Of a stretch of 40,602 nt of DNA, positions 4,000 through 35,467 are shown piece by piece. The stretch's first letter is position 1, and each line of letters opens with the position of its first letter. The notes beneath the pieces are model-generated. The model searched no databases. It was not told the origin of the DNA and saw only the letters and a list, made by a program, of their open reading frames with translations. The DNA is taken from IMG/VR virus record IMGVR_UViG_2541047755_000009; one strand, written 5' to 3'. The position numbers were made by a program, and so were the translations under genes. This DNA is from a virus. Its lineage: Duplodnaviria; Heunggongvirae; Uroviricota; Caudoviricetes.

Positions 4000-4296
4000 T
4001 CAAATAGAGAAATAAACACAAAAACAAAAAACAACAGGAACAGCAAAATCCAACAGACTTCCCACATCCCACACGCGTGGATCAAAACCTCCCCACCACG
4101 GCATGTTGATACGTTTCCCTTTCCCAAACTTTTCTATCCAGCGATATTCTGCCTGGGTGTGTTCACGCGCAATGAAGAACGTACAACCGGCTATCGCACC
4201 GTAAGCCCAGTTTCCGGTAAAAATACCAACCAGTACCTGAGCCACAAAAGCGCAAAGCGAGTGAAGAAATGGAGTGACATCAATGCTCTTAATCAT
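4000..4296 (-). CDS. small membrane protein translationally coupled to the tailspike (function unknown)
   Basis: ATG overlaps the tailspike stop (tcATGA); GGGGAAG RBS; 98 aa with 2-3 hydrophobic helices; AT-rich. Confidence 0.55.
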   Translation of the reverse strand: MIKSIDVTPFLHSLCAFVAQVLVGIFTGNWAYGAIAGCTFFIAREHTQAEYRWIEKFGKGKRINMPWWGGFDPRVWDVGSLLDFAVPVVFCFCVYFSI

Positions 4297-6585: not shown

Positions 6586-6602
6586 ATTACCTTTCAGGTA
6601 AT
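6586..6602. promoter_or_regulatory. operator-like palindrome ATTACC-TTTCA-GGTAAT (site A)
   Basis: perfect 6+5+6 inverted repeat abutting a TTGCAA -35-like hexamer upstream of the 6678 gene. Confidence 0.55.
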
Positions 6603-6982: not shown

Positions 6983-7248
6983 TTTACATCGCACTCCTCT
7001 TGTGCCATAGTAATCGGGCACTGGCAAAATCCAGTGCCGGGATTGGCGTCCCGAGTTACTACAGAGGCACATATGCCGCATAAGCGGTTTTTTTTATGTG
7101 TAAAGCGCACCTATTCTATGGTGGGCTGTGTGGGGGCACCGAAAGGTGCGCCGGGTCCTTTGTAGCCGGTTACGCCAACCCTGCACAGTTCACCACCAAC
7201 CGATTGGCGTCGGTAGTGGTGATTAACCTAACTACAAAGGTGATCACT

Positions 7249-21499: not shown

Positions 21500-21937
21500 T
21501 TAACCAGTTACTTTTGAGCGGATCGGATACGGCGTATTGGCATCAACATCAAGACTGATACCAGCAGTGAATTCGCCAGCCGTTAGTGGGCCAGTTGCGA
21601 CGGAGTAGTTAACACGCAGATATCGCTGAACACCGGCAGGCACCTTTGCAGAAACAACTCGTTTACCTGCTGTCAGGGCGGTCTTTGCCAGTGCGCCACT
21701 ATCATAAATAGTGGTCCATGAGCTGTTATTCTCACTCGTCTGCAACTGGATGTTTACAGTTGCATCACCGCTTGCCGCGGCGGCTGTGTTAACCAGCGCC
21801 CAAAACTCAAGCGGGTAACCCACGCCGATATCACGACGTTTTCCGTCAATTGGACCGAGATCGATTACGTCAGTAGAAGCCGCGGTATTCGTAACCGCCT
21901 GAGCTTCGGAGAACATCAACAGTTTGTCGGTGATCAT
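21500..21937 (-). CDS. capsid decoration/accessory protein candidate
   Basis: 145 aa, Thr/Ala/Ser-rich, immediately downstream of the major capsid gene. Confidence 0.4.
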   Translation of the reverse strand: MITDKLLMFSEAQAVTNTAASTDVIDLGPIDGKRRDIGVGYPLEFWALVNTAAAASGDATVNIQLQTSENNSSWTTIYDSGALAKTALTAGKRVVSAKVPAGVQRYLRVNYSVATGPLTAGEFTAGISLDVDANTPYPIRSKVTG

Positions 21938-21952
21938 CTTCTTTCTCCATTA

Positions 21953-21972
21953 GTGGGTCTGTTACGACCCAC
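21953..21972 (-). other. stem-loop immediately 3' of the major capsid gene
   Basis: 7-bp stem GTGGGTC / GACCCAC with 6-nt loop, followed by the RBS of the next gene; may stabilise or attenuate the transcript. Confidence 0.4.
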
Positions 21973-21988
21973 AGGTTAATAACAGGCG

Positions 21989-22975
21989 TTACACCACGCG
22001 GGCTTCTGTTTCCAGAAGCGCATCAGTTTCACGGATTGGTACACCACGGAATGAAGTCCACCACTCGCCTTCTGTCTCTTTTACGCTGATCGCCAGAGAT
22101 GTTTTCTCCAGAGATTGCAGATCAAGAGCCTGGCCTACAGTGCGGTTCATGTAGAACACCGGGCGACCCATGCCACGATTTGGAATGCGATGCAGTGCTT
22201 TAACCATCAACTTCGCAATATTTGCGGCAGAGGAAGGTTCTGAAAGATTGCTGACATCGATGTTTGCAATGCGAACAACATAACGCCAGTCACGCAGAGC
22301 AAGTCCGTTGTCCCATTTGTAATGGGTACGGTAGCCTTCGTACTTGCCGCCATTAGCATCTTCCAGTGTCACCTGGCCTTTATCTTCCATCTGAATGCCA
22401 GCCTTCTGCCCTTTCGGGAAGATGCCATGCACGGTGTTTTCGCCCCACACCACTAACCAGATTGAGGTGTTATCTGTACCCGTGCCACCAGCATCAATGA
22501 TGTTCTGAGCATTACCTGCAGACAGGCTGGAATAGCGGGAGGACAGTCCCATAAACTGCTGAGGGTTAACGCTGGAATCACCATAAAACAGCGTCTGCGC
22601 CATCTGCTGATTCATCGCTTCAATAAATGCGCGGTCTTCAGACAGGCGGAATTCGGCGGTATTGCCGTTCAGATCAGCCAGTGACTTATCGACTTCAGCA
22701 TAGGTTTCCAGCATGCCAACGGAATCGGTTACCTGCACTGTGGTTGATTTGCTTGGCTGTACGCCATAGTTCAGCAAACGCCAGGTAGCTGAAGGTAAAC
22801 CAGAACGAATGGTGGTTCGGTGTCCGGTAGGAAGGTTCCCTTCGACAAAAGGCATATCCTGAAGGATCGGGTTAGTTTGACCGAGAAGCTCGATAATCTT
22901 ATCGACTTTCCCGTTTGGATCGACGCGCTTACCCCAGTCAGCCAGCGTTAGCGCAGTTAAGCCTTTAACAGCCAT
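21989..22975 (-). CDS. major capsid protein
   Basis: about 330 aa directly after the scaffold gene; GAGAGGA RBS; post-gene hairpin; call rests mainly on position and size. Confidence 0.6.
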   Translation of the reverse strand: MAVKGLTALTLADWGKRVDPNGKVDKIIELLGQTNPILQDMPFVEGNLPTGHRTTIRSGLPSATWRLLNYGVQPSKSTTVQVTDSVGMLETYAEVDKSLADLNGNTAEFRLSEDRAFIEAMNQQMAQTLFYGDSSVNPQQFMGLSSRYSSLSAGNAQNIIDAGGTGTDNTSIWLVVWGENTVHGIFPKGQKAGIQMEDKGQVTLEDANGGKYEGYRTHYKWDNGLALRDWRYVVRIANIDVSNLSEPSSAANIAKLMVKALHRIPNRGMGRPVFYMNRTVGQALDLQSLEKTSLAISVKETEGEWWTSFRGVPIRETDALLETEARVV

Positions 22976-22989
22976 TGTCATTTCCTCTC

Positions 22990-23685
22990 TTATTTGCCAT
23001 AGAGCACTTCGGCCGCACTACGCTGGCCTTCATTACCACCGGTGACCATGCCATCTTCAGACATCGCCTTTCCGATTTTCACGAACGTTTTGACCAGATC
23101 AGGGTGATTACCCAGCCCGGTGGTGTTCAGATATTCTTTGAGTTCAGGTGTCCCGAACTGGTCAAGCGCACGCTGTGCGGCGCTAAGGTTAGAAATCAAC
23201 TTGTCGCCACCGATTTCTTTGTCAGCTTTTACATCAGCAGCCCACTGCTCGGTTGTTTTCTGCCAGGCTTCTGCCTGGCGCTGCTGCACACCTGCCAGAA
23301 TCTTCGGATAAGCATCAACCAGCTTTTGCGCTTGCTCGTTGGTCAGGTTAAGTTCTCGCGCCACCGGCTCGAATTCCTTCAACGCTTCTGTATCCAGCTC
23401 TACGCCTTCGGCAGCCTGAAACTCGTACTTCTCAGGCGCACCCTCTGGTTTATCGCCGTCCTTTTTTTCATCCTGCTTATCGTTTTCAGGCTTTTTGTCA
23501 TCAGCAGGTTTATCGCCATCAGCAACAGGTTGTGGCTTATCACCTTCCGATTGTGATGGATCACCAACTGGAGCAGGGTTATCACCTGCAGGCGCTGACG
23601 GTTCTGACGCAGCCGGAGCTGCTCCACCATCGACTGGTTGCTCATTGCAAAGACGGCGATACAGCAAACGCTCAAATAAATTCAT
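22990..23685 (-). CDS. scaffolding protein
   Basis: acidic, Pro/Ala/Asp/Lys-rich low-complexity N-terminal half plus helical C-terminal half; AGGAG RBS before ATG 23685. Confidence 0.6.
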   Translation of the reverse strand: MNLFERLLYRRLCNEQPVDGGAAPAASEPSAPAGDNPAPVGDPSQSEGDKPQPVADGDKPADDKKPENDKQDEKKDGDKPEGAPEKYEFQAAEGVELDTEALKEFEPVARELNLTNEQAQKLVDAYPKILAGVQQRQAEAWQKTTEQWAADVKADKEIGGDKLISNLSAAQRALDQFGTPELKEYLNTTGLGNHPDLVKTFVKIGKAMSEDGMVTGGNEGQRSAAEVLYGK

Positions 23686-23687
23686 GA

Positions 23688-23984
23688 TCACTCCTGTTCA
23701 CTGGCCTCTTTGGCCATCTTCAAATACTGTTCAGGGCAATGCGCCATAACGCGCTGAAACAGTTCCAGCGCCAGATTGCGTTGCCCCTCATTAAATGCCA
23801 TTGCCATAGCGTCCATCGGTGAGATAGCGGAAAACACACGGCCTTTCTCCAGCACCGACCAGACAACGCGACGCCCCTGTTCACTGCTCATGACAAAGCG
23901 AATGTCATCAATTTCACGCTGTGCCATGTCACGTTGCTTACGGGCGCTTTCTTCTTTCAGTTGATCATCTTCGTAATCTGTCAT
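23688..23984 (-). CDS. small acidic head-morphogenesis-region protein (hypothetical)
   Basis: 98 aa between portal and scaffold genes; ATGA overlap with the portal stop. Confidence 0.45.
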   Translation of the reverse strand: MTDYEDDQLKEESARKQRDMAQREIDDIRFVMSSEQGRRVVWSVLEKGRVFSAISPMDAMAMAFNEGQRNLALELFQRVMAHCPEQYLKMAKEASEQE

Positions 23985-25660
23985 TGTGATTGCCCACCCT
24001 GACCACTAACTGCATTCGCCATAGCTGACAAAACACTCGGATCCGAAGTTTTAGCTTCGCTTAGCGTCTTGGCGCCCTGTGCCGCCGCCATTCCCATCGC
24101 CATCATTTGTTGCTGCTGTTGCTGCTGTGCCCGTTGCTGGCGAGCCTGCTCAACCTGTTCCTGCGGAACAATGACGGTTGGAGACACTCCGGACATATCA
24201 GCGAATGCATCGATCGCCTGATCAACGTTGAGTTTGTCGAGAGCTTCTGGTTTCGCTTGCGCAAGTTGACCAATGAAGTTGACCGTAGACGCCAGACTGG
24301 ACAGGCCGATAGACTTCTGCGCCTGAGCCATGACGGAAATGTATTCGACCTTCAGGGGCATACCTTCCATCGCGTCAGGCGGTGGCGGCAGCATGTTTTT
24401 ACGCACCATCATCGAGAAAGCGCGGTCAATGAGAGGATTAAGACATTCGTCGTTCAGACGCTCCAGAACCGGCCCCAACATCAGAAGTTTTTCTTCTTTC
24501 ATTTCGATCACCGCTTCAACAGGCATCGAGCGGGTATTGATGTTCTGCAACATCATGAACAGATCGACAAAGTAGGCGCTGTTAATGATTTGACGAGTGT
24601 CCTGAATGTCTGCCACCAAATCTGCTGTACTGGGGTTAACCAGATAAGCAGGCCTGAAACCATCCTGACCAGTAATCTGATCGATATACGTGATGTCGCC
24701 AGGAAGAAGGGAGGCACGCTGATTCTTGAGGGAAGTCGGAGCAACCATCGGCGGATTGGTGGCTTTATCAATCAACTGCGACTTGCGCTTCTGGAGAAGC
24801 TGCAATGCCTTAACAGGTCCAAGCGCCAGCATACCCGGGCATGATGATCCATAAACATCTTCGCCGTTAACTTCCCAGCGCGGAGCCATAATTGGAAACT
24901 CATCGAATCCGGACTCACGCAACAACTTGTCGTTATCGCCACCAACCTCGTAATAAACCGATTTGAATGGCTTGTTCTTGCTATCCAGCTTCGATGTATC
25001 GCGGTCAATGTTCGGGTAAACCGAATGCATCACTTCAATCCACTTCTCGTAGGTTCCGCTTTCCCACATGCTTTTTACGGATTCGCTGACGTTATTTAGC
25101 CCGAACTCCTGAACAAGCTGACGAACAGTCATAGAGAACTTGCGAAAACAGGTGTCCACACTGCCACGAGGTGAGTTAGCCAGGTAGTAACTGCCTATCG
25201 GGAATGGCATTGTGCGAATGATGTCCTCATCATCCTCCAGTACCGCCATTGCACCGGTGCTGTATGTGCCGAGGCTTCCGTATAACTGCGGCAGCGACTG
25301 ATAGAGATTCGACTTATTGAACATATCGTTCATGCGGTTCTGCACCGCCTCAAGCCACAACTTAACAGGGCCATAATCCATCATTTCAGGATCTGGCGTA
25401 GCCAGGCGAAACCACGGACGCGCGGGGCTTGTGATGCCTGACATCATGCCGCTGGCGAGAGTGCGCGCCGCCATAGTCCCGGTCGAATCAATAATGCGTG
25501 TATTGCGTCGATCGTTACGGTTGACCTCAGAAGTCAGAAAGCGGGAACCACGCGGGTTGATGTAATCACTCAACTCGCGCCAGTGCGGCTCGAACGACTG
25601 ACGCTCGCTTTCAAGTTGTGCGAACTGTTTGTTCAATCGCTCTTTAGTTGTTTCCGCCAT
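23981..25660 (-). CDS. portal protein
   Basis: 559 aa directly downstream of the terminase block; GGAG RBS; Gln/Ala-rich C-terminal tail. Confidence 0.75.
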   Translation of the reverse strand: MAETTKERLNKQFAQLESERQSFEPHWRELSDYINPRGSRFLTSEVNRNDRRNTRIIDSTGTMAARTLASGMMSGITSPARPWFRLATPDPEMMDYGPVKLWLEAVQNRMNDMFNKSNLYQSLPQLYGSLGTYSTGAMAVLEDDEDIIRTMPFPIGSYYLANSPRGSVDTCFRKFSMTVRQLVQEFGLNNVSESVKSMWESGTYEKWIEVMHSVYPNIDRDTSKLDSKNKPFKSVYYEVGGDNDKLLRESGFDEFPIMAPRWEVNGEDVYGSSCPGMLALGPVKALQLLQKRKSQLIDKATNPPMVAPTSLKNQRASLLPGDITYIDQITGQDGFRPAYLVNPSTADLVADIQDTRQIINSAYFVDLFMMLQNINTRSMPVEAVIEMKEEKLLMLGPVLERLNDECLNPLIDRAFSMMVRKNMLPPPPDAMEGMPLKVEYISVMAQAQKSIGLSSLASTVNFIGQLAQAKPEALDKLNVDQAIDAFADMSGVSPTVIVPQEQVEQARQQRAQQQQQQQMMAMGMAAAQGAKTLSEAKTSDPSVLSAMANAVSGQGGQSQ

Positions 25661-25674
25661 TTCAATGACTCCGG

Positions 25675-25881
25675 TTACTGACCAAGCAGCGTTTTACCGC
25701 TGGTATTAGCGGTTGATGTGTCGCCCTGAGAACCGGTAAGCAGCGTAGAACTACGACCAGCAGCAGCGCGACGGCGACGTGTTTCTTCGTCGCGGGCATC
25801 AACAACGGCGGCATCCTGCTCCTGTGGTGCTGCCTGAACTTCTGGTGTTGCAGGCACTGATGGTGAGCTACCCATGCACAT
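25675..25881 (-). CDS. small low-complexity protein upstream of portal (hypothetical)
   Basis: 68 aa; GGAG about 10 nt upstream of ATG. Confidence 0.35.
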   Translation of the reverse strand: MCMGSSPSVPATPEVQAAPQEQDAAVVDARDEETRRRRAAAGRSSTLLTGSQGDTSTANTSGKTLLGQ

Positions 25882-25970
25882 ATCAATGACTCCGTACGCA
25901 ATTAAATTATTACCAATTTAACCACATATGATTTATTTATCGTAGACAGTTGACATTTAACGCGCGAATT

Positions 25971-25987
25971 ATTACCTTTAAGGTAAC
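25971..25987. promoter_or_regulatory. operator-like palindrome ATTACC-TTTAA-GGTAAC (site C) next to a TTGACA hexamer
   Basis: same family as the immunity-region operators; lies between the late operon and the tRNA leader. Confidence 0.5.
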
Positions 25988-26315
25988 CAAAGAGTTCATT
26001 CCGGTTACTAACCTGACTGGCTTGTCGTTAAATTGAACAGGTGGAGTGAGCTTTTATTTTGAGCAGTACGGCGTATGGCACATGCGACGATAGCGGTCTG
26101 GATACGTTTAAGGGGCACCCTCCCTTGCTCGGGCAAACGAACCAGGTAGCCGGAATGTGCAAGTCGAGCGGTTTTATTCCGCGCACGGGGATTCACCATC
26201 CCGGCGATTCGGTGTGACGCCTCGGAAGAGACGAGGGTACAACGATGAGAGCATTGGATATTAGCGGGCTGTTCCACCCTACCTGATATCGAGCCAAACC
26301 AGTGCTCTCAGCGTT

Positions 26316-26392
26316 GTGGCATTAGCTCAGTTGGACAGAGCAACCGCCTTCTAAGCGGTTGGTCGCAGGTTCGAATCCTGCATGCCACGCCA
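26316..26392 (+). tRNA. tRNA-Arg, anticodon UCU (reads AGA)
   Basis: 77 nt cloverleaf: acceptor GTGGCAT / ATGCCAC, D-stem GCTC / GAGC with A20, anticodon stem ACCGC / GCGGT, loop CTTCTAA, T-arm GCAGG-TTCGAAT-CCTGC, G73, encoded CCA. Confidence 0.9.
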
Positions 26393-26436
26393 GAATCACG
26401 CCTAAGGACCGTGATGCCAGAAGTTCCAGGGGATTG

Positions 26437-26477
26437 GCGGTGATGGTTTCCCTTGAAGGACTATCACCGCCCTTTTT
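26437..26477 (+). terminator. rho-independent terminator downstream of the tRNA
   Basis: GGCGGTGAT...ATCACCGCC stem followed by CTTTTT. Confidence 0.65.
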
Positions 26478-26555
26478 ACAGCAGGACGCCATTGCGATGA
26501 CTTCATGCTGTAAACCAGTACAGCCACGGAAGGCATAACTCATTGCTTCCAGTTC

Positions 26556-26579
26556 GCCCGGTTCGCCGGGCATTTTTTT
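26556..26579 (+). terminator. second hairpin plus T-run directly upstream of the 26596 gene RBS (terminator or attenuator)
   Basis: GCCCGG-ttcg-CCGGGC followed by ATTTTTTT. Confidence 0.55.
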
Positions 26580-26595
26580 AAGGTGAGAATAGACT

Positions 26596-26967
26596 ATGAG
26601 TGACAAAGACATTGAATCTGAAATTCAGGCTAAAGGTTTAGCCGCGCCGCGCGTTACGCCAGACCATATCGAGAGCATTATTGCTCAGGAGGCATATTTC
26701 ACAGCAGAAGATGGTGTCTTTGGCGTAGCCATAAAAGCGAAACATACTGGCGGAGAGGTAAACTACCAGCCGCACGAATCACTTTCTCTGCTGACATTCT
26801 GCGTTCTGGTGCTGCGCAACGGCTTCACCGTCACCGGAGAGAGCGCCTGTGCAAGCCCGGAAAACTTTGATGCGGAAATTGGTCGGAAGATTGCCCGGCA
26901 GAATGCTGTAAACAAAATCTGGATGCTTGAAGGTTACTTGCTGAAGCAGAAGTTAAGCGAGCAATAA
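26596..26967 (+). CDS. conserved phage protein, tentatively Gp49 / Sf6-gene-66-like
   Basis: 123 aa; AAGGTGAG RBS; family assignment from memory only. Confidence 0.4.
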   Translation: MSDKDIESEIQAKGLAAPRVTPDHIESIIAQEAYFTAEDGVFGVAIKAKHTGGEVNYQPHESLSLLTFCVLVLRNGFTVTGESACASPENFDAEIGRKIARQNAVNKIWMLEGYLLKQKLSEQ

Positions 26968-26971
26968 CACC

Positions 26972-26983
26972 GTGACATGTCAC
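26972..26983. repeat. 12-bp perfect palindrome GTGACATGTCAC, copy 2 of 3
   Basis: between the convergent ends of the 26596 gene and the large terminase gene. Confidence 0.8.
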
Positions 26984-27057
26984 AAACAGCCAGCCGATGA
27001 GCTGGCTTTGTTTTATCCTCACCAGAGGATATCAGCAGCATTATCCCCTCCAGAGGA

Positions 27058-28533
27058 TTAAGCATAGGGATCGTAATCTGTAATGGCCTTGCCTTGCTGG
27101 TTCTGCTGACCGGGAATTCGCAGACGCTTCGACACCGGGAAAGCAAACGTCAGCAGTAGCGCATCGCCTTTACCCGGCGAACGCCCAAGCCGCTCCTTGA
27201 TATCTTCCTTCGGTTCGATAACGATTTTACCGTCCACGCGAACTTTGTACTCTGCCGCCGACAGGTCGTCCGCTGTTTCCTGGTCATCCAGCATGCCGCC
27301 CAGCCTCAGCCATGTCTTGCATGCATTGAACATCTCCCCACGCTTGTTAAGCATCTGCGGGTCAGTGGACGCACCGCCGAACGGAACAAGTTGCCATGTA
27401 CGTCCCCAGCCATCACCGATTGACTTCAAACCGGTTCCGTAACCGAAGTCGATGAACACCGCGTCAGCCTGGTACTGGTCTTCAAAGTCAGCGATACGCT
27501 TCGCCATAATCAGATCGTCGGTGGTCTTGTTGCCAGTCCATAGCACCTTACTATGCAACCCCTGCCGCAGGTATATCACCGCGTCATCAACGCCTGAATA
27601 TGCCGGGTCAACACCGATTATCACCGGTGCATGTGCCACCTGCGCAGCAGTTACCACCCGTTTCATTGCCTCGTCAGTAAGACCGGTAGGGATAAACTGC
27701 AATTCAGATGCATTAGGGAATATGCCGCGTACACGGATTTTAACGAAGTCGCTGTCTTCCCCGTAGTCATCAACCCATTTCTGCAATTGCTGCTTGTTAG
27801 TACCTTCCACCGTCCGGCTGTCAATCTGCGCAGTTTTCCAGCGGTGTTTATATTTGCGGAAACATTCACGGAATCGCCCGGTATTACGTGTCGGGTTTCC
27901 GAACGCCACCCAGATAATCTCAGTGTCTTCGTCCGTTAGCGCACCTTCGGCAACTTCCCACACCAGATCCGCAATGTTCGACGCTTCATCGAATACCACG
28001 ATAATACGTTTGCGCTCGTTGTGTAGTCCGGCGAATGCCTCAGTGTTGTGCTCAGACCAGGGAATTGCGTCAGCTCGCCACCGCTTGTCGTGCCCAGGAT
28101 CATTGCTGTACATCGCGGTAGCGGTACAGGTAAACCAGTCTTTCGTGATAGCAAGGTTGGACCACTTGATAATTTCCGGCCAGGTCTTCGTTCGTAGCTG
28201 GTTGTCGGTGTTGGCGGTCACCACGACCTTACAATCCTCGCAAGTGGACATGCCCCAGTTGATCAGCATTGAGATGAATGCGGATTTACCAATACCGTGA
28301 CCAGAAGCACGTGCCAGCATAAGCGGCTGATAGCGCGTCTCTGGATTCTGCAGATGATCACGTATCTCTCGGAACGCATCGGCCTGCCACTGACGTGGAC
28401 CGGTGGCATGTGCCAGTTCAGTACCCTCTTCCCCCCACGGGAACGCATAGAGGGCATAGCCAAGCGGATCGTGAGTGAACCCTGCAATATCCTCGATCAA
28501 CTGCTCTTCAGGAGATAACGCTGTATCTGTCAC
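27058..28533 (-). CDS. terminase large subunit
   Basis: Walker A-like ARASGHGIGKS; about 490 aa; GTG start overlapping the small-subunit stop. Confidence 0.85.
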   Translation of the reverse strand: MTDTALSPEEQLIEDIAGFTHDPLGYALYAFPWGEEGTELAHATGPRQWQADAFREIRDHLQNPETRYQPLMLARASGHGIGKSAFISMLINWGMSTCEDCKVVVTANTDNQLRTKTWPEIIKWSNLAITKDWFTCTATAMYSNDPGHDKRWRADAIPWSEHNTEAFAGLHNERKRIIVVFDEASNIADLVWEVAEGALTDEDTEIIWVAFGNPTRNTGRFRECFRKYKHRWKTAQIDSRTVEGTNKQQLQKWVDDYGEDSDFVKIRVRGIFPNASELQFIPTGLTDEAMKRVVTAAQVAHAPVIIGVDPAYSGVDDAVIYLRQGLHSKVLWTGNKTTDDLIMAKRIADFEDQYQADAVFIDFGYGTGLKSIGDGWGRTWQLVPFGGASTDPQMLNKRGEMFNACKTWLRLGGMLDDQETADDLSAAEYKVRVDGKIVIEPKEDIKERLGRSPGKGDALLLTFAFPVSKRLRIPGQQNQQGKAITDYDPYA

Positions 28534-29126
28534 TGATTACCATCCTGACGTTCTTTGAGTCGCTTCCTGGCTGCTGCTATGCGATCAGCAATTGTCACAT
28601 TCACATTAACATCCAGACGTTCTTTGAACGCGTTGACATCAACATGCTTACCAATCAGTTCTAGGTTCTTCACCTTGTCAGGCCATTTAATTTTTTTGAG
28701 GATTGTCTCTATCGAATCCTCGTTCATGTTCATGATGGTCGATGACAGATCAAAGCCACTAAGCGTAGTGCGCCAGATTTTCGGCCACTCACGGATTGGT
28801 TTAAGGCTCCCATCGTCGTTGAGGATATCGATCACGTCCATCTGGTCGATCTCCACCAAGCGCATGAGAACGTAATCAGCACTGACGCGCATTCGTTTGT
28901 TGCGCTCCTCCATCAACTCGGCAATCCGTTTTTGAATGCGTTCATCGCGCATCATGACACTGGCTTTAACTGCCGCTGTATTTGGGGAGAATCCTGCGTT
29001 AATCGCTGCCTGAGTCTGGTTTTCAGGCGTTTTGATGTATGACTGGCAATAAGCCTCCTGCATTGCTGTGAGCGGCTTAAATTGCGTTGATTTGCGTTTA
29101 TAGGTTTTAGGTTCAGCAGGCATCAT
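28530..29126 (-). CDS. terminase small subunit
   Basis: about 198 aa from the ATG doublet near 29126 (track ORF extends to a TTG at 29204 without RBS); directly upstream of and coupled to the large subunit. Confidence 0.6.
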   Translation of the reverse strand: MMPAEPKTYKRKSTQFKPLTAMQEAYCQSYIKTPENQTQAAINAGFSPNTAAVKASVMMRDERIQKRIAELMEERNKRMRVSADYVLMRLVEIDQMDVIDILNDDGSLKPIREWPKIWRTTLSGFDLSSTIMNMNEDSIETILKKIKWPDKVKNLELIGKHVDVNAFKERLDVNVNVTIADRIAAARKRLKERQDGNQ

Positions 29127-29236
29127 AACCACCGTGGTAATAGTTACCGTTGTGGTAATAGTACCATGCAAAATAAAGCCGCCATAGTTGGCGGCAGTAT
29201 TCAAAACCCGTCAAATTCATCATGCATAATCTACTC

Positions 29237-29248
29237 GTGACATGTCAC
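29237..29248. repeat. 12-bp perfect palindrome GTGACATGTCAC, copy 3 of 3
   Basis: immediately upstream of the small terminase gene. Confidence 0.8.
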
Positions 29249-29592
29249 ACTATTAATTTCGTTTCATGCCAGCCTTTAGTCACCCAGCATTGCGAGTCAC
29301 CATTACACGGGCATGAATTAACTGGAACTCTCTCGCCGCACTTACCGCAACGTTTTCTGCTGATCGATTTTATACGCCCGCGCACACGTGCATCATCCTG
29401 GCGGATCAGCAGCGCGATGTACTCGGCCATTTCATAGGGATCGCGACCAGGGCGCCGGGCGGCGCAGTTCCGCGCCAGCATTTCCTGCTCCTGCTTATCC
29501 AGCACCAGTTCAATTTTGCGCTCACCGGCGGCGGACTGCCGAGCGCGCTGCGCGGCTTTGCGTTCTGCGGGGGATTTAGCCACGAATCGCAC
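29245..29592 (-). CDS. basic protein with C-terminal Cys cluster (possible zinc-binding DNA-binding protein)
   Basis: 115 aa; Arg/Lys-rich N-terminus; CGKCG...CPC...C cluster; GTG start; immediately upstream of the terminase genes. Confidence 0.45.
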   Translation of the reverse strand: MRFVAKSPAERKAAQRARQSAAGERKIELVLDKQEQEMLARNCAARRPGRDPYEMAEYIALLIRQDDARVRGRIKSISRKRCGKCGERVPVNSCPCNGDSQCWVTKGWHETKLIV

Positions 29593-29698
29593 TCCACGCC
29601 AGATTGATTAATGACTCCCAGGTAATATAAACCCGGATACCAGCAGCCAGGCCGAAACCAATCACCATGGCATAAAGCAGAGCGTTGCACTTGTTCAT
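29576..29698 (-). CDS. 41-aa single-TM peptide coupled to the DUF551 gene
   Basis: not in ORF track; strong RBS AGGAGGTGA about 5 nt before ATG; ATG overlaps upstream stop (TGATG); product MNKCNALLYAMVIGFGLAAGIRVYITWESLINLAWSAIRG. Confidence 0.45.
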   Translation of the reverse strand: MNKCNALLYAMVIGFGLAAGIRVYITWESLINLAWSAIRG

Positions 29699-30555
29699 CA
29701 CTTCACCTCCTGCGGCGGTTCTGGTAGCGGCATCCAGTGGGTTACATTGCGGCTCTGCGTTTCGAAGAACTCCTCACCATTGCGGACGACATCAAAAAAT
29801 TCACCGTCTCGATATTGCGCATAAAGAACGAATGCGCTATCACATAAAATAATTACGTGCTGACCATCATCAGGCATTCGCTCACTACAGCTTATCCAAC
29901 CATCCGGAGTAACCGGATAGTTGCCATTCACAAGGTCAGCTCGAACATATAGCGTGTCATCATGGTGCTGATTGTGGCTGCACCACGTTAATTCGCTTAA
30001 CTCGCCATCTTCTGGCCATACTCCAGCCGTTTGCAGCCAGATATGGGCTGGCGCATCTTGGCAAGGTGTATTAACTGGCAACTTGTAAGTTTGGCTTACA
30101 GGTTCGGCACCATGAAGCATGGCGGCGCGGCAGGCGTTAAGCGCGTTTTGCACGCGTTTAGCGTTCTGTACTTCGTATTTAGGTGCGGCTGCCAATGCCC
30201 ATAGCCAACCAATTTCATAGCTATCAGCTTTTGATAGAGCACATTCCATTTCCAGTGTTATTTTCTTAGGTACGAGTTGCCAATCATCTGGCACTACCGG
30301 TGCTGGCAGCTCGCGATACAGCGAGATTACACGACGCGGGTCCGCATATTTATCTGGCGGACACTGAAATATCTCACCGAAACCATACTTCCTGACATCG
30401 CGCAGTTCCTCTTCATCAGTCCATGCCACCGGTTCTGCTTCCAGCGATACCAAAGCAATTTCATAAGCACGGCGCTCAATATTGTCTCGAACGTCCAGGC
30501 TGCCTATGCGCTCTTTGATTTCTTTAATCAGTTCTTTGTCGGTTAAAGTGGTCAT
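29698..30555 (-). CDS. DUF551-domain phage protein
   Basis: C-terminal HWMPLPEPP signature that I associate with DUF551; GAGGA RBS. Confidence 0.6.
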   Translation of the reverse strand: MTTLTDKELIKEIKERIGSLDVRDNIERRAYEIALVSLEAEPVAWTDEEELRDVRKYGFGEIFQCPPDKYADPRRVISLYRELPAPVVPDDWQLVPKKITLEMECALSKADSYEIGWLWALAAAPKYEVQNAKRVQNALNACRAAMLHGAEPVSQTYKLPVNTPCQDAPAHIWLQTAGVWPEDGELSELTWCSHNQHHDDTLYVRADLVNGNYPVTPDGWISCSERMPDDGQHVIILCDSAFVLYAQYRDGEFFDVVRNGEEFFETQSRNVTHWMPLPEPPQEVK

Positions 30556-30558
30556 GTG

Positions 30559-30708
30559 TTAGTCCTCTGTAGCAGGTGATACGCCGTAGTTGCATTCTTC
30601 ATAGAATATGTCTCTGCCTATTTCTTCGGCATCCTCTGGCGTGTCTGCTTCAAACTCAACAACCTTGCAATCATTAAATCCTTCGATAGTCACGATGTAC
30701 TTAGCCAT
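30559..30708 (-). CDS. small acidic protein (49 aa)
   Basis: ATG at 30708 with AAGGAGAG RBS inside track ORF 30559-31044; product MAKYIVTIEGFNDCKVVEFEADTPEDAEEIGRDIFYEECNYGVSPATED. Confidence 0.45.
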   Translation of the reverse strand: MAKYIVTIEGFNDCKVVEFEADTPEDAEEIGRDIFYEECNYGVSPATED

Positions 30709-30709
30709 A

Positions 30710-31438
30710 TCACTCTCCTTTGATGCGAATGCCAGCTGCGCTTGCTGATTCTTCATATGCGCGTTTAGCAGCGTTAAGGATTGCTGCCAGTGGCGTATAG
30801 CCGCCATCCATTCGGATTGTGTTGTGGATGCCAGCCATTGTGTCGCGCAATTTGCTGTGGCTAGCAGACAGTTCTGCAATGCGCTTCTCTGCGGCTTCCA
30901 GCTTCTCGCGCATATCGTCAACGTACTCGACCAGAGAACCGCCAGCAGGAATTTCGCACTCCTCGACCAGTTGGAAGTAGATATCAGCTGCGGCCCGTGT
31001 GTTGCTATGCCTAGCGTCGCCCATCTCACCTTCACGAAGAGCATCGCGTTCGGCGGTAAGATTGGCTATTTTGCTGTCTTTGCCTTCCAGCTCAACGCGC
31101 AGCTTCCCTACCGTTAGCGCAATATCCTCGTTCTCCTGGTCGCGGCGTTTTATGTATTGCTGGTTTCTTTCCCGTTCATCCAGTAGTGCCAGCACGGTAG
31201 CCGGATTGGCTGCGGCGATGAATTCAGCATTGGCCTGCTGTTCCATTTGGAAATCTTCATCGAAACCGCTTTCTGGATGCGCTCCTTCAATTCTGCAAAT
31301 GGGAATATATCCAGCAGCCTCGCGATGAATTAGTGCATCATCACCATCAAATCGGCCCTCTCCATATTCGAGTGACCACACACCACACGTTGCTTTTTCT
31401 GCCTTTTCACGCAGTGCCTGATAGTCAATCTTGCTCAC
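30710..31438 (-). CDS. Ea22/ead-like early protein
   Basis: 242 aa; coiled-coil middle region; resembles lambdoid Ea22-type proteins from memory. Confidence 0.5.
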   Translation of the reverse strand: MSKIDYQALREKAEKATCGVWSLEYGEGRFDGDDALIHREAAGYIPICRIEGAHPESGFDEDFQMEQQANAEFIAAANPATVLALLDERERNQQYIKRRDQENEDIALTVGKLRVELEGKDSKIANLTAERDALREGEMGDARHSNTRAAADIYFQLVEECEIPAGGSLVEYVDDMREKLEAAEKRIAELSASHSKLRDTMAGIHNTIRMDGGYTPLAAILNAAKRAYEESASAAGIRIKGE

Positions 31439-32010
31439 TGGTTGCCTCCTTTGCGAAGCTGAGCGGCTAACTCGTCACATATGTGCGTCAAAGCGCAAAG
31501 TTGGATTGCTGGGTGTTCGCGCACCATCTCAACCCCCTGCGCCCGTACTTCAGCCAGGAAAGCATCGATGGCTGGGTGCTCTGTCTGGCTATGCATTACC
31601 CATTCAGATAAGTACTCGAAGCAACGGCGAAACTCCTGCCAATCACTGCACATGTTTAGGTTTCCGCCTTCACACTCGAACTGGTAATTCTCTAAACGGT
31701 CTGCAAACGCCCTGCCATTCTCGATGGCACCAAGTGGAGCATCAGATTTCAGCCAAGCATTCTCCGCCACCAGCGCTGAAAACTTCTCGTGTGCCAACTT
31801 AACAGCCGAATCAGCCTGCTTAATTGACTCAATCGCTTTCTGCTGGTCTTCGGCCAGCGCATTAGCACGCGCCAGTTGCACTTCCAGTTGCGTTGCCAAA
31901 TCGCTGATCAGCTTTGCCACACTGCGCATATCAACGGCACCACATTCTGCTTTCAGTTCCGAAGCCATCTCATGCCCGGCGGCAACTAACCCTTTGATAT
32001 TACTTTCCAT
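31435..32010 (-). CDS. coiled-coil early protein (Ea22-like family, tentative)
   Basis: 191 aa; ATG start; overlaps the downstream gene start. Confidence 0.45.
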   Translation of the reverse strand: MESNIKGLVAAGHEMASELKAECGAVDMRSVAKLISDLATQLEVQLARANALAEDQQKAIESIKQADSAVKLAHEKFSALVAENAWLKSDAPLGAIENGRAFADRLENYQFECEGGNLNMCSDWQEFRRCFEYLSEWVMHSQTEHPAIDAFLAEVRAQGVEMVREHPAIQLCALTHICDELAAQLRKGGNQ

Positions 32011-32071
32011 CTTTACCCTCGCTTATCCACATAACTTATTGATTACATTGATAACTAAAAAGATCGTCGAT

Positions 32072-32416
32072 TCAGAACTCTTCGATGTTCCAGCCACCAC
32101 CTGCTTTCTTTGGTTTAACCGTTACCCCGATGATTCGGAACGGATACTGATCTGCGGCGACTTTGGTTTTCACCCTGGCGTCGTCGGTCCAGAAACCTTT
32201 CACTTCGTGCAGTTCCATCTCGCCGGTGACGAGCATCACAGCGAAATCGGGCGTATAGAACGTGTTGTCAGCTAACCGCAGCTTGATACCCTCGAATCGA
32301 TACCAGGCGATTTCCCCTGCACGTTTACGCTGCTCAAGGTGCTGGCAATACGCAGATTCTGTTTTGTTCATCTGGCCTGTTTTGAGTCGACCAAGAGCCT
32401 GTATCTGTTTTCTCAT
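32072..32416 (-). CDS. small PD-(D/E)XK nuclease-like protein
   Basis: 114 aa with YTPDF...MELHEVKG arrangement compatible with a D...E-x-K nuclease core. Confidence 0.4.
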   Translation of the reverse strand: MRKQIQALGRLKTGQMNKTESAYCQHLEQRKRAGEIAWYRFEGIKLRLADNTFYTPDFAVMLVTGEMELHEVKGFWTDDARVKTKVAADQYPFRIIGVTVKPKKAGGGWNIEEF

Positions 32417-32418
32417 GA

Positions 32419-32497
32419 TTTACCTCTGAGGTAATTAAAAACCACATAAGACACTAAATCAATAGAATTTAGAATATTTTGTTACCCAATAGGTAAC
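32419..32497. promoter_or_regulatory. two operator-like palindromes (TTTACC-TCTGA-GGTAAT and GTTACC-CAATA-GGTAAC) in the gap after the P-like gene
   Basis: sites J and H; the second is a perfect 6+5+6 palindrome. Confidence 0.5.
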
Positions 32498-32533
32498 TAT
32501 CGAGGCGTAAAAAAATGCGCTATCGCGCTGGTA

Positions 32534-33334
32534 TTACTTGATAAATCCTGCCGCCTTTCCCCGCCTGTATTCCTCCATCAGCCACTGCGCCGGTGTTATT
32601 CCCCCAAGGGTGGCGGCGTTAGGCATGCACCCGAAACTTCGCCCTGGCGGGTGGTAAACGTCTCTCCCTGTGTCCGGAGGTGTACTCATGGGTTCTGGCT
32701 TTGCCTGTATGCTGATCACCGGATCGGGTATCTGCTGTCCGGAAGCCACCTTTTTCGCCCAATCATCGAGCAGCCTGCGCGCGTGTTTCTCAACCTCAAT
32801 CTCGCTAAGCTGGCGCTGATACATTGCACGGCGGGTATCACATACGACCCAGTACATAACCGGATGTCGCCACGGGAATCTTTCGGGACCGCCAGGATAT
32901 AAACTTTTTTCCTTGCTGTACCGGTGAAACTCCGCCATCACATCGTCAATGGTGACGCCAAGAACCATCTTGCTGTCTTTGCACCACTTGATGAATTGCC
33001 CTGGCGACGGCCAGAACGGAGATTCACTGGCGCGGGCGTGGCGCATACCAGCAGAAACCTGTTCACGGGTTCGGATCCCCCCTTCGGCAAACGCAGCAAT
33101 CCACTGCTGTTTTGCAGCAACTTCCTGCTCTGGCGTCTTCAGGTTGGTTACCACTGCCGCCGGAAACAGTTGTTTCAGCTGTTTAAAAAGGGCATCAACA
33201 AGCCTCTCTGCTGACATGTTCACCACATTGTCATTGTTGACGTATTGATGCTCATAACCTGACATGCGAGAAAGGGCTTCTCCGTCACGGTTTTGTATCG
33301 CGGTAAAAACGTTGTTCACAAGAAATCCTCCCAT
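32534..33334 (-). CDS. replication protein P-like helicase loader
   Basis: segment IRTREQVSAGMRHARASESPFWPSPGQFIKWCK parallels lambda P (MEQVNAGMRVARRQNRPFLPSPGQFVAWCRE). Confidence 0.8.
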   Translation of the reverse strand: MGGFLVNNVFTAIQNRDGEALSRMSGYEHQYVNNDNVVNMSAERLVDALFKQLKQLFPAAVVTNLKTPEQEVAAKQQWIAAFAEGGIRTREQVSAGMRHARASESPFWPSPGQFIKWCKDSKMVLGVTIDDVMAEFHRYSKEKSLYPGGPERFPWRHPVMYWVVCDTRRAMYQRQLSEIEVEKHARRLLDDWAKKVASGQQIPDPVISIQAKPEPMSTPPDTGRDVYHPPGRSFGCMPNAATLGGITPAQWLMEEYRRGKAAGFIK

Positions 33335-34131
33335 GCTTCAGGGCTGTTCCAGTGCGGAACGTTGTTATCAGGTAATGTTGATTGCTTCTGTCTGCTAATC
33401 TGCAGCCGCCTTGCCAGCTTCTGCTCCCACTGTGCCTGATGGTATGCCTTACCCTCAGCCATCCAGTAAATTCTGAACTCTGCAAGTTCCTGTGCCGTTG
33501 GCAGACTGTCCAGGTAGATCCCCTGCAATGAGCTTTTCCGAAGAAAGTCATCTGATGGCTGCCATTGTTCATGCATGACAAATTTGCCTAATTGCCCTGG
33601 CCCACCAGGAGGAACAAAGTTATTCATCACGGCGTTGTTTGCGCCGGGGTCATGAGGCACAGAATCCCCGCTTTTTGTCCTGCTCTCCCTCTCTTGGTTA
33701 AATGACTGGTTATATGACTGGTTCTGGATCCCGTTTTTGGGATCATTCAACATCCCGTTTTTGGGATCATTCAACATCCCGTTTTTGGGTATATTCCCTT
33801 TTTCGGTAACATTACCGTTTTCGGGTTCATTGCCCCCCTCTCGGTTGCCTTTAATGTTCCCGTTTTTGGTTATATTAAGAGAGAAAACCCGCACTCTTTT
33901 TGTCGCTCCCTTTCTCTCCCCGGTATCTGAAATAAGCCCCATTTTCATGAGCGATATAAGTCCGGCCTGCACGGTTTTTTTATTCAGGCAAGTGTCTTTA
34001 ACGAGGCGTTCTATGCTGGGGTAGCAGAGGTTATATTCATCGGCTCTGTCAGCCATCGAGAGCAGTATGAGCTTTAATGACGAGCTACCTGGATCTGTCT
34101 CCCAGGCCCAATCTGTTGCATGTCTGCTCAT
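33316..34131 (-). CDS. replication initiator O-like protein containing the ori iterons
   Basis: N-terminal HTH-like region; central repeated peptide NGNV..KNGMLNDPKNGMLNDPKNG encoded by DNA iterons; directly upstream of the P-like gene with overlap. Confidence 0.65.
   Translation of the reverse strand: MSRHATDWAWETDPGSSSLKLILLSMADRADEYNLCYPSIERLVKDTCLNKKTVQAGLISLMKMGLISDTGERKGATKRVRVFSLNITKNGNIKGNREGGNEPENGNVTEKGNIPKNGMLNDPKNGMLNDPKNGIQNQSYNQSFNQERESRTKSGDSVPHDPGANNAVMNNFVPPGGPGQLGKFVMHEQWQPSDDFLRKSSLQGIYLDSLPTAQELAEFRIYWMAEGKAYHQAQWEQKLARRLQISRQKQSTLPDNNVPHWNSPEAWEDFL
33725..33875. repeat. origin-of-replication iterons (4-6 copies of ATCCCGTTTTTGGGAT-type palindromic repeats)
   Basis: near-identical repeats with roughly 24-bp periodicity inside the O-like gene, as in lambda ori. 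Confidence 0.7.
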
Positions 34132-34882: not shown

Positions 34883-35467
34883 ATGAAAAGTATCCAGGAC
34901 GTCCGCAGGCAAAATCTCAACGACTTGATCGACCGTGAATTCAATGGTGTTCAGACGCGGATGGCAGAAAAACTTGGAACTCAGGCAAATCTGGTAAACC
35001 GCTGGGCTCTTGGCAAGAAGGTTATCGGCGACCAGGTTGCACGAAAAATTGAAGCTGCCGCCAATAAACCCCGTAACTGGCTTGATATTGATCGCTCGCT
35101 TTCTCAGGAGGGTTTTCAGCCTGTCGGCCCGAGCGATATAGGTCAGCTGGCGGCTCACAACCTGGAACGCTGGATGAGCGAAAGCCGCGACCTTTCAACG
35201 CAGGGAAAACTACACCGCGCATCCGGCGTCGCCCAGGTGACAATCAGCCGCCTGTTAAACAATGAGGTCAGCGTTTCCATTTCCACCCTGGAGAATGTTG
35301 CATCCGCATTCGGGCGTCACGGCTATGAATTACTGATTCACCCGCACGACCCTGCGACCATCAACTATGATCGCTCGCGCTACGCATTGTTACCCGAAAC
35401 CGAGAAAGCAAAGATCGAAAGTTACATTGAATTTGTCATCAACCAGAACGAAAAAAACAAACAATAA
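34883..35467 (+). CDS. prophage repressor, dual HTH, no S24 peptidase domain
   Basis: XRE-type HTH QTRMAEKLGTQANLVNRWALGKK plus a second HTH-like segment; no Ser/Lys autocleavage module at 194 aa; divergent from the Cro-like gene across the operator cluster. Confidence 0.7.
   Translation: MKSIQDVRRQNLNDLIDREFNGVQTRMAEKLGTQANLVNRWALGKKVIGDQVARKIEAAANKPRNWLDIDRSLSQEGFQPVGPSDIGQLAAHNLERWMSESRDLSTQGKLHRASGVAQVTISRLLNNEVSVSISTLENVASAFGRHGYELLIHPHDPATINYDRSRYALLPETEKAKIESYIEFVINQNEKNKQ

Follow-up and report, generated by a model that had tools for sequence, protein, structure and literature searches.

The stretch of DNA analysed here (the window; 40,602 nucleotides (nt), IMG/VR record IMGVR_UViG_2541047755_000009) is an Escherichia coli prophage of the epsilon15/phiV10-like group (Uetakevirus), integrated beside guaA. 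Its minus strand encodes the late genes, among them the small and large terminase, a gene of 68 amino acids (aa), the portal, and head and tail genes. Wedged between the large terminase on one side and the 68-aa gene and portal on the other, and transcribed in opposition to them, is a plus-strand unit (25882–26967) that consists of a promoter with an overlapping operator, a long leader, a transfer RNA (tRNA-Arg(UCU)), two terminators, and a gene of the Gp49 family. A sequence-only reading of this DNA had listed these elements, and all were found where it placed them. RefSeq records already include the tRNA and the Gp49 gene; what is new is the family of the RNA at the core of the leader (26067–26238), which is, on the strength of its covariation, a member of a conserved, pseudoknotted structured RNA family. 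Over the query region, E. coli strain B1 matches at 100% identity, and phiV10 and the O157 typing phages 9 and 10 match at 96%. The unit does break the minus-strand late operon, as had been noted; the term "insertion" then used for it fits less well, since the unit is conserved throughout the epsilon15-like group and is thus not recent. Within this group only its cargo varies, being Gp49 in the window and a Tad2-like gene in a Klebsiella phage.

The leader occupies about 330 nt (25987–26315), has a G+C content of 0.59, and holds no credible open reading frame (ORF), much as first described. The accompanying guess of a processed leader or a small RNA was right in spirit: the leader harbors a member of a structured RNA family together with flanking stems of a processing type, termed P0 on the 5′ side and P5 on the 3′ side. 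The elements of the core are the following.

26067–26238, plus strand: core structured RNA (covariance model R1, 134.7 bits, expectation value (E) ~3e-38)
26069–26077 with 26081–26089, plus strand: helix P1
26094–26100 with 26143–26145 plus 26149–26152, plus strand: helix P2
26145–26163, plus strand: invariant 19-mer GGUAGCCGGAAUGUGCAAG
26163–26165 with 26203–26205, plus strand: helix P3
26188–26191 with 26199–26202, plus strand: helix P3b
26194–26197 with 26211–26214, plus strand: pseudoknot between CACC in the P3b loop and a downstream GGUG
26220–26224 with 26232–26236, plus strand: helix P4, loop GAAGAGA

Within its 157 consensus positions, the core folds into four helices with a three-way junction and a pseudoknot. 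Alignments of the core feature invariant blocks, the 19-mer GGUAGCCGGAAUGUGCAAG among them, with variable hairpins in between. The fold was obtained first with RNAalifold and then by explicit pair counting. Across 38 representatives, 98.1% of core cells are paired, compared to 31–44% with slid partners, and 11 pairs have changed on both sides; the covariation score of 0.256, versus 0.116 for shuffled alignments, was reached in 0 of 500 shuffles. A model-derived alignment of 78 distinct sequences gave 98.5% of core cells paired, with 12 pairs changed on both sides. In these 78 sequences, the varying pair of the pseudoknot, which had been left out of the model, is CG in 56, AU in 19, and unpaired in none. 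Its frequent G-U pairs tie the fold to the plus strand. Two further pairings are not part of the fold: one between the P1 loop GGCACAU and AUGUGC of the 19-mer was dropped as both sides are invariant and one sequence (L031) breaks it, and one between CUUG of the P2 loop and CAAG is not claimed, the motif being frequent but not universal. With filters off, model R1 found one significant copy each in the window and the complete mEp460 genome, and no second, diverged copy near PR or elsewhere in either. Two tandem cores do occur in one viral contig (L052, 3998–4154 and 4805–4959, minus strand; 114 and 150 bits), about 650 nt apart.

Conservation of this kind could in principle belong to the DNA itself, as a recombination boundary, an att remnant, or an origin, or else to a small protein gene. 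P5 and its inserts do act like exchangeable cassettes with conserved boundaries, some inserts hold hairpins like tRNA 3′ halves, and long open frames do cross the core, annotated as hypothetical proteins in some records. Such an explanation is nonetheless very improbable and, so far as comparison of sequences can tell, largely refuted by covariation and indel phase. Compensatory changes are present in seven helices including the pseudoknot, and the G-U pairs confer strand specificity, a property that neither a DNA site nor a coding sequence would need. The indels between blocks are not multiples of three: spacer lengths taken modulo 3 are evenly spread (15/12/11 and 10/11/17), and the ORF frames shift between relatives. 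The core is not coding because its spacer lengths are not multiples of three, and a protein-coding leader was rejected for either strand.

For 25882–26315, Rfam 15 (4227 models) offered no match, whether gathering scores were applied or E values up to 10 admitted, and the core and tRNA-like modules of eight related loci matched no Rfam family at E up to 1. The Rfam matches that were obtained over the window and these eight loci were to tRNA, C4, isrK, STnc490, and int-alpA, none of them on the leader. The flanking stems and tRNA-like scaffolds described below are likewise neither in Rfam 15 nor in any record inspected, that of P1 included. A described RNA like the core was not found in the searchable literature, exact-sequence searches included, most subscription papers lying outside that coverage; as a rough estimate, it is unlikely, if not negligibly so, that the RNA has already been described somewhere. 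The Pas small RNAs and HnrS are different and smaller RNAs.

The core is widespread. BLAST searches with the leader returned epsilon15-like phages of E. coli, Klebsiella, Enterobacter, and Salmonella, and, for 26068–26255, matches of about 79% to many lambdoid phages (mEp460, cdtI, 2H10, and Stx2a and Stx2c phages), all of them unannotated there. An exact-motif scan of one genome per species yielded 27 genome matches across genera of the Enterobacteriaceae (Kosakonia, Phytobacter, Citrobacter, Kluyvera, Klebsiella, and Erwinia, and further Superficieibacter, Pseudescherichia, Pseudocitrobacter, Buttiauxella, and Enterobacter). A scan of viral contigs placed the core in at least 120 of them, and the covariance model produced 101 matches at 114–156 bits in the fetched loci. 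Among complete E. coli genomes, 1836 of 5426 carry it, at 2467 places, 554 of which are on plasmids; no feature is annotated on the core in any listed record of these genomes.

Three unrelated temperate phage types account for these contexts: epsilon15-like podoviruses, lambdoids of the SfV/mEp460/Stx2 type, and P1/P7. In all three, the core belongs to an early unit under repressor control and has a tRNA or tRNA-like scaffold next to it. In the lambdoids it lies just 3′ of cI on the same strand, preceded by the terminator of cI and by a promoter that overlaps sites of the TTGCG..CGCAA type, such sites being present between cI and cro as well. It thereby forms the 5′ end of the PL transcript, often 0–15 nt from the predicted start; next come the scaffold, a terminator, and the early-left genes. 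In P1, P7, D6, SJ46, and numerous P1-like plasmids, the core takes up the space from trnI (tRNA-Ile2) to ban in the C1-controlled ban operon. The P1 copy (L159 4523–4700, equivalent to ~71022–71199 of AF234172; 133 bits) is overlapped by none of the 535 features in the record. The ban operon is under the C1 operator Op72 and also holds a dicF-like region, tRNA-Asn, and tRNA-Thr; tRNA-Ile2 ends 13 nt before the core. The ban start codon comes about 100 nt after the core, the promoter is 2.3 kb away from it, and it is not followed by a terminator. No protein is common to the window phage, mEp460, and P1 except for spurious ORFs across the RNA (55.5 of the 94.8 kb of P1 compared), and a comparison of ORF sets showed that DUF551-like and replication proteins are all that mEp460 and the window phage have in common.

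Around the core, the unit and its surroundings are laid out as follows.

25950–25978, plus strand: sigma-70-type promoter, –35 TTGACA (25950–25955), 17-nt spacer, –10 TACCTT (25973–25978); read from the sequence, function putative
25972–25986, no strand assigned: phage repressor operator, palindrome TTACCTTTAAGGTAA, overlapping the –10 (palindrome count)
25987–26066, plus strand: 5′ extension of 80 nt with the P5-like stem-loop P0 and motifs CUUGUCGUUAAAU and GGUGGAGUGAGCUUUU (minimum-free-energy fold)
26240–26316, plus strand: P5, a long stem of 16 base pairs, CAACGAUGAGAGCAUU (26240–26255) with AGUGCUCUCAGCGUUG (26301–26316) (covariation)
26256–26300, plus strand: exchangeable 45-nt hairpin insert inside P5
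26316–26392, plus strand: tRNA-Arg(UCU) with encoded CCA (ARAGORN, anticodon tct; Rfam tRNA; annotated in RefSeq twins)
26395–26415, plus strand: trailer hairpin AUCACG-CCUAAGGAC-CGUGAU, which recurs after the tRNA or scaffold in many loci
26436–26479, plus strand: T1, terminator-like hairpin with a 14-pair stem (26436–26471), then CUUUUU (pattern scan)
26475–26514, plus strand: imperfect palindrome or hairpin ACAGCAGG...CAUGCUGU between T1 and T2 (80% self reverse-complementary over 40 nt; kept in relatives)
26556–26579, plus strand: T2, strong intrinsic terminator GCCCGG-UUCG-CCGGGC (26556–26571) followed by seven U (ATTTTTTT) (pattern scan)
26596–26967, plus strand: Gp49-family gene of 123 aa in the variable cargo slot (Pfam PF13876; RefSeq "Gp49 family protein")
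26988–27013, plus strand: terminator-like hairpin closing the unit, 45 nt before the convergent terminase gene (pattern scan)
27058–28533, minus strand: large terminase
25675–25881, minus strand: 68-aa gene (PHROG 831, function unknown)
23981–25660, minus strand: portal

Palindromes of the type TTACC-N5-GGTAA number 13 in the window where 0.78 are expected, a count reached in 0 of 100 shuffles; they start at 6587, 6967, 8009, 25972, 29126, 29144, 32420, 32482, 34428, 34765, 34813, 35525, and 35587. Copies flank the repressor (34883–35467) and cro genes, lie between them, and occur in the antirepressor region. Because of this placement, the palindrome TTACCTTTAAGGTAA is a real phage operator and the RNA unit, judging from these sequence patterns, is under repressor control. 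The operator-like site that had been noted next to a TTGACA hexamer is thereby borne out, and the epsilon15 record has a repressor site annotated at the homologous place. Together, the 13 palindromes mark at least five or six repressor-controlled sites, with the pairs 29126/29144 and 32420/32482 inside the early-right region. The layout of the promoter recurs 5′ of the core in related loci; a simple promoter scan picked an overlapping, weaker match, TAGACA-18-AATTAT, instead. Directly upstream of this divergent RNA promoter, the 68-aa gene, which carries an arginine-rich stretch ETRRRRAAAGRS, is kept in all epsilon15-like relatives.

The order of the unit is stem, core, stem, tRNA or scaffold, hairpin, terminators, and cargo gene, with P5-like stems flanking each cargo RNA. 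On the 5′ side, P0-homologous stems of the form "..AAC + strand ... GGNGGAGUGCGCUU + GUGUG" are found in Klebsiella, Enterobacter, and Salmonella relatives; P0 is absent in SPN1S-type relatives, whose core starts about 25 nt past the operator. On the 3′ side, P5 follows directly upon P4, and its last base is the first of the tRNA. Its pairing is supported by 93.2% of cells paired versus 33–64% when slid, with seven pairs changed on both sides, an outcome reached in 0 of 500 shuffles. The inserts within P5 differ between near-identical phages, yet are common to distant ones. The 45-nt insert of the window is identical in a Citrobacter werkmanii prophage with an SPN1S-type core, and the different insert of typing phage 9 is also found in mEp460 and a Klebsiella prophage. 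A long P5 insert common to Stx2a_1447 and SPN1S (L004 4190–4290; L009 1810–1900) features two hairpins with the T-loop-like sequences CUGGUUCAAUUCCAG and GUCCGUUCGAUUCGGAC. P4-like hairpins with GGAAAGAC loops recur in longer versions. The only tRNA type to come directly after the core is tRNA-Arg(tct), in 26 of 130 unique elements; one locus (L012) has a single distant tRNA-Ile call some 600 nt downstream of the core. In about 49 of the 130, the position is occupied by a tRNA-like scaffold, composed of an acceptor-like stem GUGGUG/CACCAC, a D-like hairpin, a variable center of 30–150 nt, and a T-like hairpin, the arms of which covary.

The tRNA itself (26316–26392) matches the Rfam tRNA model RF00005 at 73.3 bits (E 2.5e-14; gathering score 29). 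Aligned with argU of E. coli K-12, it is identical at 60 of 77 positions. The differences consist of compensated changes in four acceptor-stem and two anticodon-stem pairs and a divergent variable loop, with no change in the D arm, anticodon loop, or T arm. This alignment agrees with the initial description of a phage-specific tRNA set apart from argU by its acceptor and anticodon stems, and it rules out an exact host argU copy captured with att flanks. A megablast match to the region exists in only 1012 of 5426 E. coli genomes, so that the tRNA is not a copy of a universal host gene either. AGA frequencies, counted from the window ORFs, average 6.85 per 1000 codons overall and reach 6.7 in tail, 8.6 in early-right, and 13.2 in left-end accessory genes, compared to 1.6 in head and packaging genes. 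AGA decoding on behalf of the late genes is thus partly upheld: AGA is enriched overall, tail genes included, but is almost missing from the flanking head and packaging genes. Six consecutive head genes (21500–25881, minus strand), major capsid and portal among them, lack AGA entirely, and a 729-aa ORF (4293–6482) has 13 AGA codons. Plausibly, the tRNA supplements AGA decoding.

An account of the unit that centers on counter-defense would have tRNA-Arg(UCU) and the scaffolds replace, or act as decoys for, a tRNA cut by an anticodon nuclease, with the core as an accessory decoy or stabilizer. The phage tRNA keeps the argU anticodon loop and alters its acceptor and anticodon stems, some scaffolds (L020, L014) display UUCUA in enlarged loops, a Tad2-like anti-Thoeris gene takes the cargo position in the Klebsiella relative, and the operator context points to early expression. 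Phage tRNAs that evade tRNA-targeting defenses are also on record (PMC10264068, PMC11464382, PMC11555353). The published escape tRNAs are reported to alter the loop, whereas the anticodon loop is unchanged here. No phage-defense nuclease specific for tRNA-Arg(UCU) was named in the literature retrieved, and the core occurs without tRNA-Arg in P1 and L105. Colicin D targets tRNA-Arg. On balance, this account is improbable.

Downstream of the tRNA, the two hairpin/T-run elements anticipated in the sequence-only reading, the second of them just before the ribosome-binding site, were recovered by pattern scan as T1 and T2. T1 is conserved in epsilon15-like relatives, epsilon15 itself included. T2 lies directly before the Gp49 ribosome-binding site, 16 nt ahead of the Gp49 start region, and the homologous stem-loop is annotated as a rho-independent terminator in the epsilon15 record. 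By pattern match only, the region has 4 terminator-like sites versus 1.6 ± 1.3 expected. Between T1 and the gene, the plus-strand segment 26503–26579 ends in a hairpin followed by T2. This is reminiscent of the 3′ end of an Hfq-type small RNA, but the Rfam matches are weak and non-significant (RyhB, 18 bits, E 2.6); the segment may represent an attenuator or an additional small RNA. The Gp49-like gene that had been called next in line matches Phage_gp49_66 (PF13876) over the full profile (1–82) with E 2.4e-35 and 121.3 bits against a cut-off of 27, and corresponds to PHROG 322, function unknown. In other phages the cargo position holds a Tad2-like gene or unrelated small genes. The Tad2-like (Thoeris anti-defense 2) cargo is that of Klebsiella phage ST512-KPC3phi13.3 (L006 2197–2718; Pfam E 4e-26). 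This suggests that the slot 3′ of the RNA and tRNA is a counter-defense hot spot.

The core could instead be a cis-acting, protein-independent processive antitermination or anti-Rho element, resembling put RNA without kinship to it. As nascent RNA it would modify the polymerase transcribing it, allowing read-through of T1 and T2 or, in N-less lambdoid phages, of the scaffold terminator into the early genes. This is the strongest rival explanation, though an unlikely one. The lambdoid core lies ~0–15 nt from the cI-controlled leftward start, the place of nutL/N or putL, and mEp460 has Q with no N annotated. Terminator-like hairpins separate the RNA from protein genes in lambdoid and epsilon15-like loci alike, and in L105, where the core is a stand-alone unit without tRNA-Arg, the early-left genes are reached only by read-through of a convergent gene's terminator. 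Set against this are the single copy in each genome tested, with none 3′ of PR, and the P1 core, 2.3 kb from its promoter with no terminator behind it. In epsilon15-like phages, furthermore, such an element would serve a single small accessory gene converging on terminase, and L014 possesses the RNA modules with no cargo-like ORF of at least 70 aa. The put RNA of HK022, an N-less lambdoid phage, measures ~70 nt and forms two stem-loops (PMC9378689), far smaller than the 157 positions, three-way junction, and pseudoknot of the core. In HK022 24000–34000, where the unannotated putL and putR are expected, the core model scored at best 4.4 bits with filters off. Like put, the core is a structured RNA that comes right after a repressor-controlled early promoter and upstream of terminators in lambdoid phages with no N annotated; unlike put, it does not come as a putL/putR pair, and is also found far from a promoter (P1) and in a one-gene unit (epsilon15-like). 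The identification of the core as HK022 put RNA itself was consequently rejected, for want of a model match and for its single copy and different architecture. The P4 hairpin, with its 5-base-pair stem and GAAGAGA loop, and the hairpins with GGAAAGAC loops resemble lambda boxB only loosely. The first early-left ORF has no Pfam match.

A third possibility is that the core serves as a sensor within the 5′ untranslated region, as a riboswitch or as a leader bound by a protein. In response to a cellular signal, it would set the share of the early transcript that is extended or translated, and thereby inform a lysis–lysogeny or host-state decision. The size, the pseudoknot, and the invariant unpaired blocks of the core are reminiscent of aptamer domains, and the core is always 5′ of the other genes and RNAs of its unit, ~100 nt before ban in the case of P1. 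A conserved expression platform is lacking, however; depending on the locus, P5, a further RNA domain, a coding gene, or a convergent terminator comes next. The downstream genes (helicase, tRNA, recombination genes, xis-int, Gp49, Tad2) share no functional theme, and no Rfam riboswitch matched at E up to 10. The sensor explanation is accordingly regarded as doubtful.

The reading that fits best, held tentatively and with a little less than even confidence, is that of an early, polycistronic, mostly non-coding RNA operon that supplies a stable RNA acting on a host factor along with a rare-codon tRNA. In the absence of repressor, transcription would start at ~25985 and pass through P0, the ~170-nt core, P5 with its insert, tRNA-Arg(UCU), the trailer hairpin, and the two terminators. 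T1 and T2 would end most transcripts, such that gp49 is reached only by read-through, in keeping with the attenuation-type control suggested at the outset. Host stable-RNA enzymes may then cut the precursor, RNase III in P0 and P5, and RNase P together with 3′ trimming at the tRNA. This processing is proposed by analogy, because the unit resembles stable-RNA operons and the early operons of P1 ban and Qin dicBF; an RNase III site annotated within the unit in the epsilon15 record fits a processed-RNA operon. One product would be the stable core RNA, whose invariant single-stranded segments could bind, sequester, or redirect a conserved host macromolecule belonging to the translation or RNA-metabolism machinery. 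The core probably recognizes such a macromolecule, since its invariant nucleotides persist across host genera and the three phages have no protein in common over the 55.5 kb of P1 compared. The other product would be the tRNA, supplying or replacing AGA-decoding capacity. The single core in each genome tested, the RNA-only locus L014, and the missing terminator behind the P1 core all count for action in trans. As to its role, the core may contribute to host takeover or counter-defense, needed early and dispensable for plaque formation. In epsilon15 (L005 2821–2990) and viral contig L155, a deletion has fused the P2 and T1 loops at a shared 13-nt motif, UUCCCUUGAUGCU, with loss of P5, the tRNA position, and the greater part of the core; because epsilon15 lacks these parts, the core RNA is dispensable for plaque formation.

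Several observations weigh against this operon. RNase III cleavage of P0 and P5 is predicted from their shape only, and P5 pairs up to the first base of the tRNA (26316 belongs to both), which could hinder RNase P. The lambdoid arrangement, with the core at the PL start followed by a terminator and the early-left genes, has the look of a cis-acting antiterminator as well. The host factor, in turn, is deduced from the invariant nucleotides and from the failure to find a protein common to the phages, in a comparison that covers 55.5 of the 94.8 kb of P1. A bolder extension, to be given a distinctly smaller though appreciable share of confidence, is that the core constitutes a new functional class beyond a mere new family, either a protein-independent RNA that, early in infection, reprograms host transcription or translation or inhibits a host defense or RNA-processing enzyme, or a new large ribozyme that matures the operon; the P5 inserts and scaffolds would then be a natural, exchangeable display of RNA cargo in P1, Stx, and epsilon15-like phages.

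Several known systems bear comparison with the RNA operon favored here. Stx phages carry the ileZ-argN-argO tRNA cluster. As with phage rare-codon tRNAs in general, the window has a functional-looking tRNA-Arg(UCU) on a temperate enterobacterial phage, and in P1 the core adjoins another rare-codon tRNA, tRNA-Ile2(CAU). Unlike those tRNAs, the present one is fused via a covarying stem to a structured RNA under direct repressor control, and many relatives have a non-decoding tRNA-like scaffold in its slot. These modules, with acceptor-, D-, and T-like arms that frame an insert of 30–150 nt, recall engineered tRNA scaffolds. DicF and the Qin dicBF operon, the P1 ban leader, and the C4/CI RNAs likewise place a non-coding RNA in a repressor-controlled early transcript with tRNAs, and the dicF-like region of P1 is in the same ban operon as the core. 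The P1 C4 and P4 CI RNAs are matured by RNase P. In contrast to DicF, C4, and isrK, whose Rfam models miss it and to which it is unrelated in sequence and structure, the core is much larger, pseudoknotted, and without an obvious antisense target. GOLLD and ROOL are large, ornate prophage RNAs, often beside tRNA genes, and both are Rfam families. The core shares with them the prophage setting, unknown function, and association with tRNA genes, but has no Rfam match, resides in Enterobacteriaceae hosts, and is much smaller. Finally, the T4 tRNA cluster encodes the stable "species 1/2" RNAs of unknown role, co-transcribed and co-processed with the tRNAs; T4 differs in being virulent, and its RNAs are probably unrelated to the core.

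About one complete E. coli genome in three has the core, as do Shiga-toxin-converting phages and P1, which is among the most thoroughly annotated of phages. An invariant 19-mer and a covarying pseudoknot, retained across three phage lineages and more than ten enterobacterial genera, argue for a specific molecular target. Early repressor control and the rare-codon tRNA and Tad2-like neighbors make the core a candidate early host-takeover, antitermination, or anti-defense RNA. A practical corollary is that many hypothetical proteins called across the core region in phage records are spurious.

Other RNAs were encountered in the window and in related phages. Matches to isrK and to C4 antisense RNA (74 and 80 bits) lie at 7018–7094 and 7114–7200 (plus strand), in the antirepressor (immI-like) region. 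The isrK/C4 pair, matched at L003 1706–1894 (minus strand) as well, occurs in the lambdoid phages mEp460 and Stx2a_1447, and c4 in P1 too, so that a C4-type immunity RNA is common to all three phage types that have the core. In Enterobacter phage Tyrion, the terminase–portal locus contains an int-alpA RNA 3′ of the cargo gene (L007 2903–2967, plus strand; 44 bits, above the Rfam gathering score). Near the left end of the window, at 1687–1810 on the minus strand, is a full-length match to the Hfq-binding small RNA STnc490 (146 bits, E 4e-30).

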